Of a stretch of 64,000 nucleotides of DNA, positions 8,700-17,465 are shown piece after piece. The notes beneath the pieces are model-generated. The model ran no database searches. It was not told where the DNA came from and saw nothing but the letters and a program-made list of their open reading frames with translations. Source of the stretch: Lachnospiraceae bacterium (GTDB lineage: Bacteria > Bacillota > Clostridia > Lachnospirales > Lachnospiraceae); assembly GCA_024692825.1 (NCBI GenBank), contig JAILMB010000050.1:686-64685 (forward strand), written 5' to 3'. The position numbers and the translations under genes were made by a program. Each line of letters starts with the position of its first letter. Position 1 is the stretch's first letter.

Positions 8700-9815
8700 T
8701 TAATCTACGGTATGTACGCCGTATGAATTTTTCTGGAGTAGATCTTTGGCTTTTTGAAGGTCTTCTTTTGATGCCATCTCAATATGTAGTACACCAGCTT
8801 CATACTCACGGTTATTTACAATGCCGATATTTTTGATACTTAAATTTTCGGAAGCCAATAGGGTTGCAATTTTGGCAATTCCACCAGTTTCGTCCTTTAA
8901 ATCACAGTATAATTCGAAGCTAACAGGTAAAACACCGGTTTTTTTCAATGGCAGGGAATCCCGGTAGTCCTTGGCTTCTGAAAACAGTTCTAAGAGCCTC
9001 TTTTCGTCGGAGTCCATAACGGCTGATTCAAAATCTGACAGCTGATTTTTATACAGTGAAATCAGGGTTAAGATTTCTTCCTTGTTCTCTAAACAGATAT
9101 TTTGCCACATTACAGGAGAGGAGGAGGAGATTCTTGTAATGTCTTTAAATCCTCCGGCCGCAATTGTTTTTAAAGTCTGATCTTTGGTTTCATTATTTTT
9201 TACTAAATTTACGAGGGCAGCACTCATTATATGCGGAAAATGAGAAATGGCTGCTGTGGCAAAATCGTGTTCTTTGCAACTAAGGCGAAGAGGAATCGCT
9301 CCAAGGGATTGGATTAACTCATAAAAGTCCTGCAAAATCCCTTCGTCTTTAAATCCTTCTGATGTAATAATGTAGTAGGCGTTTTCCAATAAATCAGCAG
9401 AAGCATTGTGAAAGCCGATTTTTTCAGAACCAGTCATAGGATGTCCGCCGATGAAATGATCTTCTAGACCTAAGTCTGAAACAGCCTTATGAATATCTCC
9501 TTTGACACTTCCTACATCTGTAAGTATACAGGTCGGCTTTAAATAAGGTTTTAGCTGCTTTAGATAATCAATATTTACTTTTACCGGGGAGCATAAAAAA
9601 ACAAGATCGAAGGAGCCAAAGTTCTCTAAAGGTATAAAATCTTTGTTTTGAATCACACCTTCCTCATAGGCTTCTTCTAAAGTTTCTTTGTGAAATGCAT
9701 GGGCATATATTTGAATGGAAGGGTCAGTTTTCAAAAGTGCTTTTGCAATGGAACCTCCGATTAACCCTAATCCAATAAATCCAACAGTTTTAATTTCCAA
9801 TCTTTTTTCCTCCAA
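8700..9815 (-). CDS. tyrA: Prephenate dehydrogenase with C-terminal ACT domain
   Basis: 371 aa with a TTG start preceded by AAGGAAG. Rossmann motif GLGLIGGS and HPMTGSE motif. Lies upstream of aroA on the same strand. Confidence 0.9.
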   Translation of the reverse strand: MEEKRLEIKTVGFIGLGLIGGSIAKALLKTDPSIQIYAHAFHKETLEEAYEEGVIQNKDFIPLENFGSFDLVFLCSPVKVNIDYLKQLKPYLKPTCILTDVGSVKGDIHKAVSDLGLEDHFIGGHPMTGSEKIGFHNASADLLENAYYIITSEGFKDEGILQDFYELIQSLGAIPLRLSCKEHDFATAAISHFPHIMSAALVNLVKNNETKDQTLKTIAAGGFKDITRISSSSPVMWQNICLENKEEILTLISLYKNQLSDFESAVMDSDEKRLLELFSEAKDYRDSLPLKKTGVLPVSFELYCDLKDETGGIAKIATLLASENLSIKNIGIVNNREYEAGVLHIEMASKEDLQKAKDLLQKNSYGVHTVD

Positions 9816-10011
9816 ATTCTTCCTTATTTTATCGTATTTATAGGGATTTTAAAAGGATAAGAGAGAATGGAAAATAAAATTAGAAAAAATATAATAATTT
9901 TCATTGTTTTCTGAAAGTGAGTTGGGTAAAATTGAATTAACAGATTAAATATACGACCAAAGGAGCAGTTGTTTGCAAACTTTGTAGACTCGTAGGAAAT
10001 GGGGGACCGGC

Positions 10012-12099
10012 ATGAAAGTTTTTACTACAGACAAGATACGTAACATTGTTTTATTGGGACATTCCGGAGCGGGGAAGACTTCCCTGGTAGAGTCCATGGC
10101 ATATTTGTCAGGACTTACGAACCGGGCAGGAAAGGTAGAGGACGGAAATACCATCAGTGACTATGATGCTTCTGAAATCAAACGTAAGCTTTCGATTCAG
10201 ACATCCATAATTCCAATTCTTTGGGAAGATTGCAAATTGAATATTTTAGACACTCCGGGCTCCATTGATTTCGTGGGAGAGGTAGAAGAGGCACTTACAG
10301 CTGCAGATGCAGCTATCATTGTAGTTTCCGGTAAAGACGGTGTTGGTGTTGGTACCAGACTTGCTTGGGAGAAATGCGAAAAATATCACCTGCCTCGTAT
10401 GTTTTTCGTTACGGGGATGGATATTGACGAGGTTTCTTATAAGCAGGTCATTTTAGATTTACAGGAACTTTATGGAAAACGAATTGCACCTTTCCATTTA
10501 CCAGTTCGTGAAAATGGAGAGTTTATTGGATATGTAAATGTTATTCAGCAGAGGGCAAAGCGCTGGAAGGAAGATGGAACGGTTGAAAAAATGGACGTTC
10601 CCGATTATTCCATGGAATACTTAGAGACCTATCGTGAAGCTTTAATGGAATCCGTTGCAGAAACATCCGAAGAGTTTATGGATCGCTACTTTAATGGAGA
10701 AGAGTTTTCTGATGATGAAATCCGTCAGGCACTTCGTGTAAATGTTTCCGAGGGAAGTATTGTTCCGGTCCTTATGGGTTCAAACACCCTGAATAGAGGT
10801 ATGTATACTCTTATGGTAGACATGGTGAAATATCTGCCGGGTCCGGATAAGAGAGAATGTGCAGGCATAAATGCTACTTCCAATGACGTATTTGAAGCAA
10901 ATTACGATTTTTCAAAGGCAAAGTCAGCCTATGTATTTAAAACCATTGTGGATCCATTTGTAGGAAAGTACTCCCTGATTAAGGTAAACTCAGGAGTTAT
11001 TAAAACAGACGATGTCTTGTATAACCAACATAAGGATACGGAAGAAAAAATTGGAAAACTCTATGTATTATGTGGTTCTAAAGCTGAAGAAGTAAAAGAA
11101 CTCCACGCAGGAGATATTGGAGCCTTAAGTAAGTTATCCAAAGTAACTACCACAGATTCTCTATCTACAAAGGCCAATCCGATACTTTATATTCGAACTG
11201 GAATTCCTACTCCGTATACCTGCATGAGATATAAACCGCTTAACAAGGGGGACGAGGAAAAGGCTGCTGCAGGATTAGCAAAATTAGCCCAGGAGGATTT
11301 AACCATAAAGGTGAAAAATGATGGAGAGAACCATCAGACTTTACTCTATGGTATTTCGGAGCAACATTTGGATGTAGTTGTTGATAAGTTAAAAGAAAAA
11401 TACAAAGTAGAGATTGAGTTATCACGACCAAAGATTGCATACAAAGAGACCATTCGTGGCAAATGCGATGTGGAGTACAAGTATAAAAAGCAGTCAGGCG
11501 GTCATGGCCAATATGGTCATGTAAAGATGACTTTTGAACCATTAGGTGACACGGAAAAGAACTTTGAATTTTCTCAAACAGTGGTAGGTGGAGCTGTACC
11601 AAAGAACTATTTCCCTGCAGTTGAAAAGGGATTAGAGGAAGGCTGTAAAAAGGGACCTTTGGCAGCTTATCCGGTAGTTGGAATTAAGGCGAATCTATAT
11701 GATGGCAGTTACCATGCAGTAGATTCTTCAGAAATGGCCTTTAAGACAGCAGCGATTCAATGTTTGAAGAAGGGTATTTTAGAAGCAAAGCCCGTGTTAT
11801 TAGAACCTGTTTCTGAATTAAAGGTATTGATACCGGATGATAAAACCGGTGATGTCATGGGAGATTTAAATAAACGTCACGGTAAGGTGACAGGCATGAA
11901 TCCTGTGGAAGGTCAAAAAACAGAAATTGTTTGCGAGATTCCAGACTCTGAATTGTTTGGATATGGAACCACCCTTCGTTCATTAACAGGAGGCGAGGGT
12001 ACATTCTCTTATGAATTCTTGAGCTATCAACAAGCACCTGGGGATATTCAAGAAAAAGAAATTGAACACAGAAAGAGCAAGCTAGAAGAAGACGAATAG
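10012..12099 (+). CDS. Elongation factor G paralogue (EF-G2-type translational GTPase)
   Basis: 695 aa. G1 is GHSGAGKTSL, the EF-G-2 style rather than the canonical AHIDAGKTT. G3 is DTPG, and all five EF-G domains are recognisable. It is not in an rpsL-rpsG-fusA-tuf context. Confidence 0.88.
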   Translation: MKVFTTDKIRNIVLLGHSGAGKTSLVESMAYLSGLTNRAGKVEDGNTISDYDASEIKRKLSIQTSIIPILWEDCKLNILDTPGSIDFVGEVEEALTAADAAIIVVSGKDGVGVGTRLAWEKCEKYHLPRMFFVTGMDIDEVSYKQVILDLQELYGKRIAPFHLPVRENGEFIGYVNVIQQRAKRWKEDGTVEKMDVPDYSMEYLETYREALMESVAETSEEFMDRYFNGEEFSDDEIRQALRVNVSEGSIVPVLMGSNTLNRGMYTLMVDMVKYLPGPDKRECAGINATSNDVFEANYDFSKAKSAYVFKTIVDPFVGKYSLIKVNSGVIKTDDVLYNQHKDTEEKIGKLYVLCGSKAEEVKELHAGDIGALSKLSKVTTTDSLSTKANPILYIRTGIPTPYTCMRYKPLNKGDEEKAAAGLAKLAQEDLTIKVKNDGENHQTLLYGISEQHLDVVVDKLKEKYKVEIELSRPKIAYKETIRGKCDVEYKYKKQSGGHGQYGHVKMTFEPLGDTEKNFEFSQTVVGGAVPKNYFPAVEKGLEEGCKKGPLAAYPVVGIKANLYDGSYHAVDSSEMAFKTAAIQCLKKGILEAKPVLLEPVSELKVLIPDDKTGDVMGDLNKRHGKVTGMNPVEGQKTEIVCEIPDSELFGYGTTLRSLTGGEGTFSYEFLSYQQAPGDIQEKEIEHRKSKLEEDE

Positions 12100-12126
12100 T
12101 AGTAAGAGAGTATCGAACTAGAAAGT

Positions 12127-13695
12127 GTGAGAATTATGAGAAAATACGTAGGCATAACCATAGGACCAATCACAAATGCACTGCAATATGCGAAAGATCC
12201 GCAATCACTATGGTTTGCCTGCGCTATTTTTTCGGAAATTTCCAGAGAGTTATGTGAATTAATTACTGCGCCAAACTGTTCCTTTGAGGAGGTTGTAATC
12301 TACACTCCTTACTATTTTCACGGTATGAAGATTGACGATGGTGTTGCAAAGACCCATGATCGAATCATCTTTTCTGCGGAACATGTGGAGAATCATGTAA
12401 TTGATAAAATGATTGAACTTGTAAAAGAAGATGTTTGTGATTTATTCCCTGTGGAATATCAATCCCAAGAGTACCGACAATTCTTAAAAGACTATTTCCA
12501 AATCAAATATATTTGCTTAGAAGAAAATAATGAGTTAAATCACAATTGCATGATGACCATTTATCCTTATTTACATGATATGGAGTCCATGCAAAAGGGA
12601 AATACTGAGACCTTTTTGAATCCATTTTATGATTTGTTTGGCCTTGGTGAGGATACTCGAAGTTTTCGTATAATGACATCACCCATTGCACATCTGGTAA
12701 AAAAAGGGTCTGCTCAGTTTTTTAATCTTCGGGGAGAGTTTAAAACTGTTGCAGAAATCGCTAATCCAAAACTACCGGAGGGCAGGAAAAAAGCTCCCTA
12801 TTATTGCCTTGTTCGATGCAATGGGGACAATATTGATATGTTGCTCCGTGGATTTTCCGATAATAAAAAGATTATTTCTTTTTCAGTAGCCTGTTTACAA
12901 CACTCCATTACTACTTCGGAACTGATTCGAATGTTTGGAGGATTAACGGTATATGCCGGTGGAGATGAGTGCTTCTTCTTTGCACCTTTAGTAGGGATGG
13001 ATGGTTCTACGATTTTTGAATTGTGCCAAAGAATTCAGCAAAAGTTTTACACCTTTATGAAAAACCATTTGCCCTGGTCTAATATTCCAACCCTGTCTTT
13101 TGGAGTCTCCATCCAGAGAAATACTCATGATGCCTATGATGTGTTTGTGGAAACAGGTAAATTATTGGATGTGGCAAAGCAAATCAGCGATAAGAACAAC
13201 ACAGCAGTTCGCATTACCAATAAAAGCAGAAGCGAATGTATTGTTGTAAACAATCAGGACATTGATGCCTTTTTGGATATCTTCAAAGCAAACCTTGATA
13301 TTATGGATGGAATGATTACCACAGAACGAAAGAAGAATCAGCTTTCCGAGACCATTGCATTAATTGACGAGTATGAAAACATTATTATGTCCATTAGTGA
13401 AATGGCAAAAAATGGAAATCTATCTCCAGAGGAATACTTTAAGTCTGTTTCTTCCATTTTCCAGGGAGGAACATTGGAACGTTCTCCTGAGGAGTTAAAG
13501 AATCTATTGATTTTGTACTACAAACGTCTGGTTCGAAAGCCTAGAGGTATTTGGGTACCAAAAATCGATGAGGTCACTGGAAAGTATTTAAAAGCCAACC
13601 ATTACAATGCAGAGGATGGTAGTATTGGAGTCTTTGAAGAAATCCTAAATATGAAGGAAGATATTCTTGAATTAAAGGAGGAGTACACTCCCTAG
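12127..13695 (+). CDS. Cas10/Cmr2-like palm-domain (GGDEF-like) nucleotide polymerase/cyclase lacking an HD domain; orphan, with no cas neighbours
   Basis: 522 aa. The start may be GTG 12127 or ATG 12136.
- The N-terminus ITIGPITNALQYAKDPQSLWFACAIFS resembles the Cmr2_N signature (GPVQxFIxxAR..DLWxGSxLLS).
- CNGDNID (nt 12823-12837) is a palm metal-binding D-x-x-D.
- About 45 aa later comes VYAGGDECFFFAP (GGDE at nt 12958-12969).
- Then SFGVSIQ...AYDV...LLDVAK follows, as in Cas10 palm 2.
- The C-terminus is a helical tail.
Family assignment was made by eye only. Confidence 0.6.
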   Translation: MRIMRKYVGITIGPITNALQYAKDPQSLWFACAIFSEISRELCELITAPNCSFEEVVIYTPYYFHGMKIDDGVAKTHDRIIFSAEHVENHVIDKMIELVKEDVCDLFPVEYQSQEYRQFLKDYFQIKYICLEENNELNHNCMMTIYPYLHDMESMQKGNTETFLNPFYDLFGLGEDTRSFRIMTSPIAHLVKKGSAQFFNLRGEFKTVAEIANPKLPEGRKKAPYYCLVRCNGDNIDMLLRGFSDNKKIISFSVACLQHSITTSELIRMFGGLTVYAGGDECFFFAPLVGMDGSTIFELCQRIQQKFYTFMKNHLPWSNIPTLSFGVSIQRNTHDAYDVFVETGKLLDVAKQISDKNNTAVRITNKSRSECIVVNNQDIDAFLDIFKANLDIMDGMITTERKKNQLSETIALIDEYENIIMSISEMAKNGNLSPEEYFKSVSSIFQGGTLERSPEELKNLLILYYKRLVRKPRGIWVPKIDEVTGKYLKANHYNAEDGSIGVFEEILNMKEDILELKEEYTP

Positions 13696-13701
13696 TTAAC
13701 C

Positions 13702-13729
13702 TTGACAAATAAGCCCCTTATGATAAAAT
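13702..13729 (+). promoter_or_regulatory. Sigma-A type promoter for leuS
   Basis: TTGACA (13702-13707), 16-nt spacer, extended -10 TGaTAAAAT (13721-13729). Lies about 45 nt upstream of the leuS ATG. Confidence 0.55.
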
Positions 13730-13774
13730 TTTTAAGATTTAAGATTTTTATCATTAGGAGGATTGGAATAAAAG

Positions 13775-16198
13775 ATGGCTCAGGCATATAATCACCATAC
13801 GGTGGAAAAGAAATGGCAGAAATACTGGGAGGAGCACGAAACATTTAAGACAGACGTTTGGGATTTTTCAAAACCGAAATACTACGCTCTAGATATGTTT
13901 CCATACCCTTCAGGAGTAGGATTGCATGCTGGTCATCCCGAAGGATATACAGCAACTGATATTATGTCTCGTATGAAGAGAATGCAGGGATATAACGTAT
14001 TACACCCAATGGGATATGATTCCTTTGGTCTTCCTGCAGAGCAGTATGCTGTTACAACAGGAAATCATCCTAATGGATTTACAGAAAAGAATATAGAAAC
14101 ATTTTCAAAACAGTTGAAAGAACTTGGATTTGACTACGATTGGTCCAAGCTTCTTGCAACTTCAGATCCCTCATTTTACAAGTGGACACAGTGGATTTTT
14201 AAGAAGCTCTACGAAAAAGGTTATGCAAAGCATATTGATATGCCTGTAAACTGGTGCGAAGAGCTTGGTACTGTATTGTCAAATGATGAGGTCATTGATG
14301 GAAAGTCAGAGCGTGGTGGTTACCCGGTTGTTAAAAAGATGATGAAGCAGTGGGTAATTGATCAGCAGTCTTTTGCGGAAGAATTGCTTTCAGGATTAGA
14401 TGAGATTGACTGGCCGGAATCCACAAAAGAAATCCAACGTAACTGGATTGGTAAATCAACCGGTGTTGAAGTTGATTTTTCGATTGAAGGTGGTGGAGAG
14501 TTCTCTATTTTCACAACCTGTATTGAAACCATTTATGGTATTACCTTTATGGTATTGGCTCCCGATGGAGAAATTACAAAGAGCTTATTGGATCGAGTAG
14601 AAAATCGTGAAGAAGCAGAAGCTTATATTGCTGAAACTGCTAAGAAGAACGATTTGGATCGTACTGATTTAAATAAAACAAAGTCAGGTTGCCCATTAAA
14701 GGGAATTTATGCTATCAATCCTGTAAATGGACGTAAAGTACCTGTATTTATTGGTGACTTCGTATTAGCAAGCTACGGAACCGGTGCTGTTATGGCCGTT
14801 CCTACACATGATCAAAGAGACTTTGAGTATGCACAGGCCCATGGGCTTGAATATATTCAGGTAATCGATGGAGAAGGAGTAGATGTTTCTTCTCATGCGT
14901 TTGAAAAACAGGATTACCTTGGAAAGGGCTGTAAGCTTATTAATTCTGAAGAGTTTAATGGTCTCACAGTAGAAGAAGCAAAGCCGGCTATCACAAAGAA
15001 ACTTGTTGATATGGGTGTTGCAAGAGAAAAGGTAAACTATCACTTCCGTGAATGGATTTTTGCAAGACAAAGATATTGGGGCGAGCCAGTACCTTGCGTT
15101 TACAAAGAGGATGGAAGTATTGAATTTGTTCCTGATGAGGAATTACCGGTAATCCTTCCTGAGTTAGAGGACTATAAGGGTAAAAATGGTCAGGCTCCAT
15201 TAGAGAATGCCACTGAGTGGAAACAGTACGATAAGAATGGCTTAAAGGGAGTTCGTGAAACCTCTACTATGCCTGGTTCAGCCGGATCTTCTTGGTATTA
15301 CCTAAGATATATTGATCCAAACAATAACGATGAATTTGCAAATCAAGAGTTGTTAAAGCACTGGATGCCTGTAGATTTATATGTAGGTGGACCTGAGCAT
15401 GCAGTTGGACATTTGATTTATTCAAGAATCTGGAATCGTTTCTTATATAACGAGGGATTGTCTCCAGTGAAGGAACCATTCAAAAAGTTAGTACATCAGG
15501 GAATGATTCTTGGTGAGAATGGTATTAAGATGGGAAAACGTTTCCCTGAATTTGTTGTAAATCCTAGCGATATCGTAAGAGATTACGGTGCAGATACCCT
15601 TCGTTTATATGAAATGTTTATGGGACCTTTAGAGGTTTCTAAACCTTGGAATTCAAACAATGTAACCGGAGCAAAGAAGTTCATTAACCGTGTTTATACC
15701 TTCTTCTCTGAATCGGAGAATCTGACCGATGAAAATGATGGTACATTGGAAAAGATTTATCATCAGACCGTTCGTAAGGTTACAAATGACTTTGAAGAGC
15801 TAGGCTACAATACAGCTATTTCGCAGATGATGATTTTTGTAAATGCTGTTTATAAAGCAGGAAGCTGCTACAGAGAATACGCTGAAAACTTCATTAAGAT
15901 GTTCTCTTGCATTTGCCCTCATATTGGTGAAGAGATTTGGGAGATTATGGGACATAATGAGACTATTGCTTACGAATCTTGGCCAACTTATGATGAGTCA
16001 AAATGTGTGGAAGATACCATTGAGATTGCTGTTCAGATTAATGGTAAGGTGAAAGCCACAATTGCAATTGGAAAAGATGATCCAAAAGATGATGTCATTG
16101 CAAAGGGCAAAGAAGCTATTTCCGATAAGCTTGAGGGATTAAACATTGTAAAAGAGATTTACGTTCCAGGAAGAATCGTAAATATTGTAGCAAAATAA
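13775..16198 (+). CDS. leuS: Leucine--tRNA ligase
   Basis: 807 aa. HIGH-type motif PYPSGVGLHAGHPEGY, KMSKS-equivalent KMGKR, and CP1 editing domain. Confidence 0.97.
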   Translation: MAQAYNHHTVEKKWQKYWEEHETFKTDVWDFSKPKYYALDMFPYPSGVGLHAGHPEGYTATDIMSRMKRMQGYNVLHPMGYDSFGLPAEQYAVTTGNHPNGFTEKNIETFSKQLKELGFDYDWSKLLATSDPSFYKWTQWIFKKLYEKGYAKHIDMPVNWCEELGTVLSNDEVIDGKSERGGYPVVKKMMKQWVIDQQSFAEELLSGLDEIDWPESTKEIQRNWIGKSTGVEVDFSIEGGGEFSIFTTCIETIYGITFMVLAPDGEITKSLLDRVENREEAEAYIAETAKKNDLDRTDLNKTKSGCPLKGIYAINPVNGRKVPVFIGDFVLASYGTGAVMAVPTHDQRDFEYAQAHGLEYIQVIDGEGVDVSSHAFEKQDYLGKGCKLINSEEFNGLTVEEAKPAITKKLVDMGVAREKVNYHFREWIFARQRYWGEPVPCVYKEDGSIEFVPDEELPVILPELEDYKGKNGQAPLENATEWKQYDKNGLKGVRETSTMPGSAGSSWYYLRYIDPNNNDEFANQELLKHWMPVDLYVGGPEHAVGHLIYSRIWNRFLYNEGLSPVKEPFKKLVHQGMILGENGIKMGKRFPEFVVNPSDIVRDYGADTLRLYEMFMGPLEVSKPWNSNNVTGAKKFINRVYTFFSESENLTDENDGTLEKIYHQTVRKVTNDFEELGYNTAISQMMIFVNAVYKAGSCYREYAENFIKMFSCICPHIGEEIWEIMGHNETIAYESWPTYDESKCVEDTIEIAVQINGKVKATIAIGKDDPKDDVIAKGKEAISDKLEGLNIVKEIYVPGRIVNIVAK

Positions 16199-16210
16199 TA
16201 TTACATATTG

Positions 16211-16242
16211 AGGTGGCTGTTTTTACAACCACCTTAAATTTT
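16211..16242 (+). terminator. Candidate intrinsic terminator after leuS
   Basis: Hairpin AGGTGGCTGT-TTTT-ACAACCACCT (9 of 10 bp paired), followed by TAAATTTT. The U-tract is interrupted. Confidence 0.4.
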
Positions 16243-16256
16243 GAAAGGAAAAGATT

Positions 16257-17465
16257 ATGTCAAAAATTGAAATGAAAACTCCATTGGTTGAGATGGACGG
16301 AGATGAAATGACCAGAATTCTCTGGCAGATGATTAAAGATGAGTTAATTACTCCTTTTGTAGATTTAAAAAGCGAGTACTATGATCTTGGCTTAAAGCAT
16401 AGAAATGAAACCAATGATCAGGTAACAATTGATTCTGCAGAAGCTACCAAAAAATATGGTGTTGCTGTAAAGTGCGCAACCATTACTCCAAACGCTGCTA
16501 GAGTAGAAGAGTATGATTTAAAAGAAATGTGGAAGTCTCCAAATGGAACCATCCGAGCAATTTTAGACGGAACCGTATTTCGTGCTCCAATTATCGTTAA
16601 AGGAATTGAGCCTTGCGTAAAGAATTGGAAGAAACCAATTACCATTGCCCGTCATGCTTATGGTGATGTATATAAAGCATCAGAAATGAAGATTCCGGGA
16701 CCTGGAAAGGTAGAGCTTGTTTATACAAGAGAAGATGGAACAGAAGAAAGAGAATTGATTCATAATTTCACTAAAGCTGGTGTTATCCAGGGACAGCACA
16801 ACCTCTGTGATTCTATTGAAAGTTTTGCAAGAAGCTGTTTTAACTTTGCTTTAGATACAAAGCAGGATTTATGGTTTGCAACAAAGGATACCATCTCAAA
16901 AAAATATGATCATACCTTTAAAGATATTTTCCAGGAAATCTTTGATAAAGAGTACAAAGAAAAATTTGAAGCAGCAAACATTGAATATTTCTATACATTA
17001 ATTGATGATGCTGTAGCTCGTGTTATGAAGTCTGAAGGGGGATTTATCTGGGCATGTAAAAACTATGACGGAGATGTAATGAGTGATATGCTTTCTTCAG
17101 CCTTTGGTTCACTTGCCATGATGACTTCTGTACTAGTATCTCCTCAGGGATACTTCGAATATGAAGCAGCACATGGAACTGTACAGCGTCACTATTACAA
17201 ACACTTAAAGGGAGAAGAAACATCTACAAACTCTGTTGCAACAATTTTTGCATGGAGTGGAGCTTTAAGAAAACGTGGCGAGTTAGATGAACTTCCTGAG
17301 CTTATGAAATTTGCCGACAACTTGGAAAAAGCATGTATCGAAACCATTGAATCCGGAAAAATGACTGGAGATTTGGCTCGTATTACTTCTTTAGAAAATC
17401 CAAGTGTCTTAAACAGTAAAGATTTTATTATCGCGATTCGTGAAACTTTAGAATCTTATGATTAA
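16257..17465 (+). CDS. icd: NADP-dependent isocitrate dehydrogenase, eukaryotic-like (IDH1-type) homodimeric form
   Basis: 402 aa. Strong resemblance to IDH1-type enzymes ([28 protein letters not shown]). Confidence 0.93.

Follow-up and report, generated by a model that had tools for sequence, protein, structure and literature searches.

The locus considered here lies within 64,000 nucleotides (nt) of contig JAILMB010000050.1 from the metagenome-assembled genome (MAG) of Lachnospiraceae bacterium GCA_024692825.1 (genome G000); this whole stretch is referred to as the window, and all positions are counted in it. Three consecutive open reading frames (ORFs) on the plus strand encode an EF-G-like translational GTPase, a Cas10-like protein and leucyl-tRNA synthetase (leuS) (Table 1). 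A first-pass annotation had raised the possibility that the first two genes form a functional module, with the EF-G-like GTPase sensing ribosome status and thereby, as a speculation, controlling the synthesis of a nucleotide second messenger. Comparison with related genomes pointed instead to a solo relative of the CRISPR protein Cas10/Cmr2 that was probably inserted between two old neighbors.

Table 1. Features of the EF-G-like/Cas10-like/leuS locus (window positions)
Feature	Position	Strand	Basis
Candidate EF-G-like promoter, TGGAAA-16-TATAAT	9868..9895	+	Consensus scan, 10/12; pattern match only
EF-G-like translational GTPase paralog, 695 amino acids (aa), five EF-G domains	10012..12099	+	Pfam/NCBIfam matches, alignment
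Junction, EF-G-like stop to conserved Cas10-like ATG	12100..12135	+	No terminator or promoter; relatives 4-33 nt
Solo HD-less Cas10/Cmr2-like gene, 519 aa from ATG (522 from GTG 12127)	12136..13695	+	Profiles, AlphaFold2, dN/dS
leuS promoter, TTGACA-16-TG-n-TAAAAT	13702..13729	+	Consensus scan, best match of 9700-16400, 11/12
Inverted repeat, 20-nt arms, 3-nt loop, leuS -10 through leader to ribosome-binding site	13716..13758	+	Repeat search
leuS (leucyl-tRNA synthetase, 807 aa), ancestral neighbor of EF-G-like gene	13775..16198	+	ORF, gene order

All sequence-level statements of the first-pass annotation proved correct when the locus was re-checked. The EF-G-like ORF carries the G1 motif GHSGAGKT and closes with three consecutive stop codons, GAA TAG TAG TAA being read at its 3' end; only a single stop is found there in relatives, so the triple stop, which is not conserved, is probably due to chance. 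A gap of 27 nt leads to the GTG at 12127 that opens the Cas10-like ORF (12127-13695) on the same strand. The homologs all open with M[KR][KT]YVGITIGPI, and since this conserved N terminus aligns with the ATG at 12136, the real gap is probably 36 nt. No hairpin or promoter was present in the gap, as the scan returned neither a promoter-like site nor a plus-strand terminator-like site, and the junction folded no better than shuffled sequence (z = 0.5). Across every locus that carries the Cas10-like gene, the gap measures 4 to 36 nt. The leuS promoter, TTGACA-16-TAAAAT with an upstream TG, was also confirmed to start 7 nt past the Cas10-like stop codon.

Gene order was compared in 41 related genomes. 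At E <= 1e-150, 34 of them had a match to the EF-G-like gene, almost always without Cas10, and a Cas10-like neighbor stood beside it only in members of one narrow Cas10-like clade. Instead, leuS follows directly downstream in G002 (same genus), G009, G024, G042 and G046, representing four families, and lies on the same strand at a distance of 2 to 19 kb in G006, G007, G008, G011, G013, G014 and G037. These comparisons showed that, in this clostridial order, the EF-G-like gene followed by leuS is the ancestral arrangement. What lies between the two genes varies within the genus: the slot is empty in G002 and holds CstA in G007, ABC transporters in G006 and cobalt transport in G008. The loci of the clade share one order (aroA, tyrA, EF-G-like gene, Cas10-like gene, leuS), and the C terminus of the EF-G-like protein is also encoded upstream of the Cas10-like gene in G003. 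With the same flanking genes in all clade loci, the loci represent one inherited synteny block and no repeated association. The same-strand linkage of the EF-G-like gene and leuS is itself widely conserved (window 10012-16198; loci L032, L036, L037, L038 and L039), and we know of no described reason for it.

In the Lachnospiraceae relatives G002 and G009, neither of which has the Cas10-like gene, a strong terminator hairpin follows the EF-G-like gene, and beyond it lies a leuS promoter that is recognizably the same as that of the window. The hairpin is gone from 6 of 6 loci carrying the Cas10-like gene, and in the same six loci the leuS promoter is conserved nearly base for base despite saturated synonymous sites. 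A single HD-less Cmr2 gene thus lies exactly between the EF-G-like stop codon and the -35 element of leuS, in place of the terminator, in one sub-clade of an uncultured gut/rumen genus of the Lachnospiraceae. We put at roughly 60% the probability that the Cas10-like gene was inserted in this way into an old EF-G-like/leuS pair, that its pairing with the EF-G-like gene is an accident of the insertion, and that the orphan gene has been kept by selection. The EF-G/Cas10 pairing would then be due to the landing site and would not represent a conserved functional module, and both the operon-like look of the locus and read-through into leuS would follow from replacement of the terminator. A repeat search around the Cas10-like gene returned no flanking direct repeats and no mobile-element ends.

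The first-pass annotation had also described a two-gene transcription unit with leuS transcribed separately, and this held in part. With a gap of so few nucleotides and neither a terminator nor a promoter within it, co-transcription of the EF-G-like gene with the Cas10-like gene is very probable, and leuS does have a conserved promoter of its own. The unit is not cleanly one of two genes, however, because no terminator was found 3' of the Cas10-like gene and because its stop codon falls within the leuS -35 hexamer in most carrier loci, which makes read-through into leuS likely. The Cas10-like gene would be the second cistron of the EF-G-like transcript, and transcription would continue into leuS, which has retained its own promoter.

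The Cas10-like protein is annotated by NCBI as a "hypothetical protein" from a Lachnospiraceae MAG. It consists of an N-terminal Cmr2_N/palm1-like lobe, a palm2 domain at approximately aa 225-359 (GTG numbering) and a helical C-terminal domain, and it has no HD domain, as is also true of its nearest relatives. The ORF matched PF22335 (Cas10-Cmr2_palm2) at 4.1e-18 (66.2 bits against a cut-off of 27), and residues 6-367 matched PADLOC Cas10b at 7.8e-25; TIGR02577 and TIGR02578 matched below their cut-offs. A profile built from the protein and its homologs retrieved the HD-less Cmr2 of PDB entry 9lq5_B at 1e-61. The AlphaFold2 model (predicted local distance difference test score, 83; predicted template modeling score, 0.82) gave 50 listed Foldseek matches, every one a Cas10-family large subunit (Cmr2/Csm1) or an effector complex containing one, and the best of those listed was again 9lq5_B (1.2e-16; template modeling score, 0.54). 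As modeled, the protein is one that keeps the full Cas10 fold.

The distribution of this protein is narrow. Among 61 related genomes, it occurred in G000 and in three further species of that genus (68-77% identity); beyond these, the matches were a Cmr2 of 32% identity from a different genus and one that was weak and partial. A word-based search of 5.8 billion proteins returned 12 clusters at 67-100% identity and then nothing above 35%, and an exhaustive HMMER search of 1.84 billion representatives gave one 50% cluster and a fragment, with all further matches at <= 37% identity. The DNA of the locus also occurs in animal and bovine gut metagenomes. The six nearest outgroup proteins that were checked all lie within Cas6/Cmr1/Cmr2/Cmr3/Cmr4/Cmr5/Cmr6 operons of type III-B (6/6). 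From its relatives and their gene neighborhoods, the Cas10-like gene is judged to be a derivative of type III-B Cmr2. It resembles the HD-less Cmr2 proteins of such systems (9lq5_B; loci L013, L029, L046, L048, L050 and L051) in length (about 500 aa), domain order and fold, and shares with them the N-terminal GITIGPI, GK-HDR, palm2, G-G-D and K356. Unlike them, it is encoded outside any cas operon, is at most 37% identical and sits on a very long branch, and it has NxD, GGDE and changed P-L and K-x-S positions. One of the nearest type III-B operons (L029, 1-17527) is bordered on both sides by genes for TraG/type IV secretion system coupling proteins, which suggests that HD-less Cmr systems may travel on conjugative elements, a possible route of acquisition.

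Partners of a type III system were sought with PF03787, the RAMP family, across the genomes of the genus. Genes for RAMP proteins were found only in G000, where they are part of a type III-D system; no match to PF03787 was obtained in the other carriers of the Cas10-like gene, G003, G004 and G005 (82-88% complete), so that three of the four carrier genomes are without detected RAMP genes. When Cmr3 to Cmr6 of the nearest operon (G030) were used as tblastn queries against G000, the sole hit was the Cas10-like gene itself. At the locus, the gene has the EF-G-like gene and leuS as neighbors, with no Cmr3-6 gene or CRISPR array nearby. Searches of G000 and G002 through G005 for Cas_APE2256 (PF09651), Csx1_HEPN (PF09455) and SAVED (PF18145) gave no match, two of these families being silent in the controls as well. 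We read the Cas10-like gene as one that has left its CRISPR system, i.e., as a putative exapted solo Cas10.

The orphan gene shows the marks of selective maintenance. Pairwise Nei-Gojobori ratios of nonsynonymous to synonymous substitution (dN/dS) for the Cas10-like gene were 0.03 to 0.15, with synonymous sites near saturation; less saturated pairs gave 0.05 at a dS of 1.5 and 0.15 at a dS of 0.08. These values are similar to those of the adjoining tyrA (0.07-0.28), and the EF-G-like gene and leuS gave 0.02 to 0.05. The G+C content of the Cas10-like gene (37.2%) is that of its surroundings (37.5% for the window). The low dN/dS and the local G+C content together indicated that the gene is maintained by selection and is not a recent arrival.

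The residues around the predicted nucleotide-binding pocket set the clade apart. In a tree of 119 homologs, made up of 11 clade members and 108 other Cmr2 proteins, the branch leading to the Cas10-like clade is the longest of all internal branches, with 1.69 substitutions per site (median for internal branches, 0.089). All 11 members have D232N, which turns DxD into NxD (NGD) with the second D kept, at a column that is D in 108/108 of the other proteins. All 11 likewise have D281E, turning GGDD into GGDE, where the second D is found in 108/108 others. P335 and L336, both invariant in the 108 others, are changed, so that the P-L motif is lost; the K-x-S motif is lost through K365N (a column conserved in 106/108) and a variable S367 (107/108); and G237D is fixed in the clade at an invariant or near-invariant column. 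D234, G278, G279, D280, Y337 and K356 are retained. In Cas10 palm2 domains, DxD, GGDD and KxxxK are ATP-binding motifs, and a Cas10 that binds ATP without making cyclic oligoadenylate (cOA) exists (PMC8287949). That protein, LdCsm1, comes from a type III-A system of Lactobacillus; it has lost cOA synthesis but uses ATP as a ligand, and it offers a precedent for a palm that keeps nucleotide binding via DxD, GGDD and KxxxK and is no longer a cyclase (PMC8287949). LdCsm1 still acts in an RNA-guided complex and has an HD nuclease domain, whereas the window protein is solo and HD-less.

The protein may be a stand-alone nucleotide-binding palm protein, free of the need for CRISPR RNA (crRNA) or target RNA. 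That such a protein would have an altered, weak or constitutive nucleotidyl-transfer activity is plausible, at somewhat less than even odds. Only slightly less likely is that the protein binds a nucleotide or other partner and performs no catalysis. A more specific proposal appears unlikely, namely that a full-length Cas10/Cmr2 was domesticated into a core housekeeping operon, behind a GTPase-deficient EF-G paralog and ahead of leuS, where its rebuilt NxD/GGDE pocket would make or sense a nucleotide signal linked to translation without further partners; if true, it would represent a cellular, non-defense use of Cas10, distinct from mCpol/Panoptes. What remains in any case is an orphan full-length Cas10 under purifying selection, with a systematically rebuilt pocket and, in most carriers, no RNA-guided partners that could be detected. 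As a solo Cmr2 within a housekeeping operon, it would show a CRISPR polymerase leaving CRISPR by a second and independent route, and the clade offers a natural experiment for telling Cas10 residues that act in catalysis from those that act in regulation of the complex.

To our knowledge, the only described stand-alone relatives of Cas10 are the minimal mCpol proteins of Panoptes. mCpol has a Cas10-type palm and no crRNA or RAMP partners, makes a cyclic nucleotide constitutively and is encoded beside its effector (PMC12657230). We therefore considered that the Cas10-like protein might act as a guard of this kind, in which a constitutively made cyclic nucleotide would hold back an effector encoded elsewhere as an anti-phage defense. 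Constitutive stand-alone cyclases with a Cas10 palm are known (PMC12657230; PMC12657218), the window protein also lacks RNA-guided partners, and it keeps D234, GGD and K356. However, mCpol is a minimal palm that dimerizes and adjoins a 2TM-beta or CARF-TM effector, whereas the window protein is a full, two-lobed Cmr2 that gave no hit to PF18182 (mCpol) at E <= 1, and no 2TM-beta or CARF-TM effector adjoins it, the EF-G-like gene and leuS flanking the gene in all carriers. Moreover, these neighbors are housekeeping genes outside any defense island, the composition of the gene is that of the core genome, and DxD has become NxD. A role as a guard is improbable on these grounds.

The functional two-gene module is a still less probable explanation. 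In its favor, the two genes are co-oriented in every carrier, with the short, terminator-free and promoter-free gap described above, and both are under purifying selection. The EF-G-like protein is also, by its G3 and G4 motifs, not an ordinary translocase. It passed the cut-off of NCBIfam NF009381 (835.6 bits against 583, residues 1-691) and neither that of the canonical EF-G equivalog TIGR00484 (604.8 against 659.4 bits) nor those of the two curated EF-G2 models (for EF-G2, 576.8 against 890 bits). In the G3 region (aa 80-90), it has DTPGS where its orthologs have DTPGY and the canonical fusA product of G005 has DTPGH; in the G4 region (aa 130-140), it has TGMD, within the pattern [TN][GD]MD that it shares with its orthologs, where the G005 fusA product has NKMD. 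With DTPG[S/Y] and [TN][GD]MD, the protein and its orthologs lack the catalytic His and the guanine-specificity motif (NKxD). Since the relatives G005 and G009 have a canonical fusA besides, the EF-G-like ORF is a paralog; in G000 itself, a MAG that is 83% complete, canonical fusA was not assembled. Its five-domain architecture and noncanonical G1 are those of the EF-G paralogs (EF-G2 of the Thermus or Bacteroides type; NF009381), from which it differs in falling below both EF-G2 cut-offs, in its G3 without His and in its G4 TGMD, and its conserved gene-order partner is leuS and not Cas10.

Against the module stand the confinement of the pairing to one clade and one synteny block, the widespread occurrence of the EF-G-like gene without a Cas10-like neighbor, its ancestral pairing with leuS, the variable content of the slot within the genus and the location in Cmr operons of all six nearest Cas10 relatives checked. 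In substance, this is the outcome that the first-pass annotation had itself named as counting against the module. The cyclase motifs are also altered, no CARF or SAVED receptor was found (a weak negative), and nothing was found that shows the EF-G-like protein as a trigger of the Cas10-like protein. A ribosome-binding GTPase coupled to Cas10 would have represented a novel type of sensor, and the comparative evidence ranks that claim as very unlikely. A further frame for a GTPase is present in the same genome, on contig C220 (17250-19823), where 858 codons encode a TetM-like or ribosomal-protection-like protein (ILAHVDAGKTTL…) with a long C-terminal extension.

We also considered that the Cas10-like gene might be a pseudogene or a remnant in decay, and rejected this because its dN/dS is far below 1. 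In the form of a nonfunctional leftover from a degraded Cmr operon whose decay is still to come, this idea would account for a single cas gene without partners, for the long stem branch and for the loss of family-invariant residues, yet the ORF is intact and full length in at least 11 clusters, dN/dS is low with synonymous sites near saturation, and the new residues are themselves fixed within the clade, which leaves it with little credibility. Least credible of all is a large subunit acting in trans for a type III complex encoded elsewhere, e.g., the type III-D system of G000, since that system has its own Cas10d, the solo gene is kept in three genomes without detected RAMP genes, G000 has no Cmr3-6 homolog of the nearest operon, and residues invariant in operon-encoded Cmr2 are lost. 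No other type III system was seen in the genus; the type III-D fragments lie on the short contigs C279 (L025) and C84 (L026) and encode a Cas10d C terminus, a Cas5/Cas7 fusion, Cas7 proteins, Csx19 and a reverse transcriptase-Cas1 fusion.

Several observations weigh against the reading of the locus as an accidental insertion of a gene that was then retained on its own. The first concerns leuS itself. Two leuS lineages, about 50% identical, occupy the same locus in the genus with similar promoters (the G002 copy is at L032, 5503-7923), and the window type, which some other genera also have (74-100% identity), was found exactly in the species that have the Cas10-like gene. This co-occurrence suggests that one replacement event brought both, and the insertion account offers no explanation for the switch of leuS lineage. 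The leuS identity profile against G002 showed no clear mosaic breakpoint. Nor was a donor of the insertion found: in five other genera that have window-type leuS, the genes preceding it have nothing in common with the window. The absence of RAMP and effector genes is weak evidence, because all genomes from this genus are MAGs with a completeness of only 53-88%, and G001 went unscored for the Cas10-like gene, its contig ending inside the EF-G-like gene. By its sequence, the NxD/GGDE pocket fits catalysis as well as its loss. The 4-nt spacing at two loci and the retention of the pair through saturated synonymous divergence would fit a coupling of the two genes that arose after the insertion. Finally, the matching runs listed by a search of sequencing data were DNA from animal and bovine gut, with none of RNA among them; four runs gave contigs only. 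One run with a metatranscriptomic label, though probably DNA, reached a short part of the EF-G-like gene and none of the Cas10-like gene, a result with no bearing on expression or co-transcription.

Among the remaining features, the candidate promoter upstream of the EF-G-like gene would serve both this gene and the Cas10-like gene, and transcription would read through past them. The inverted repeat in the leuS leader has counterparts, recognized by eye, in the leuS leaders of the G005 type and of G002; it could be an operator, or it could be a hairpin formed only in read-through transcripts. A search of 9500-16500 with Rfam at E <= 0.1 returned no RNA family, and in particular no T-box was found in the window, where, as elsewhere in its family, the leuS leader is about 45 nt long. 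In other families, leuS is preceded by a leader of about 300 nt with a T-box-like sequence (…AGAGTGGTACCGCG…), as seen at L037 (2800-3175), L038 (4290-4620) and L039 (4150-4665).

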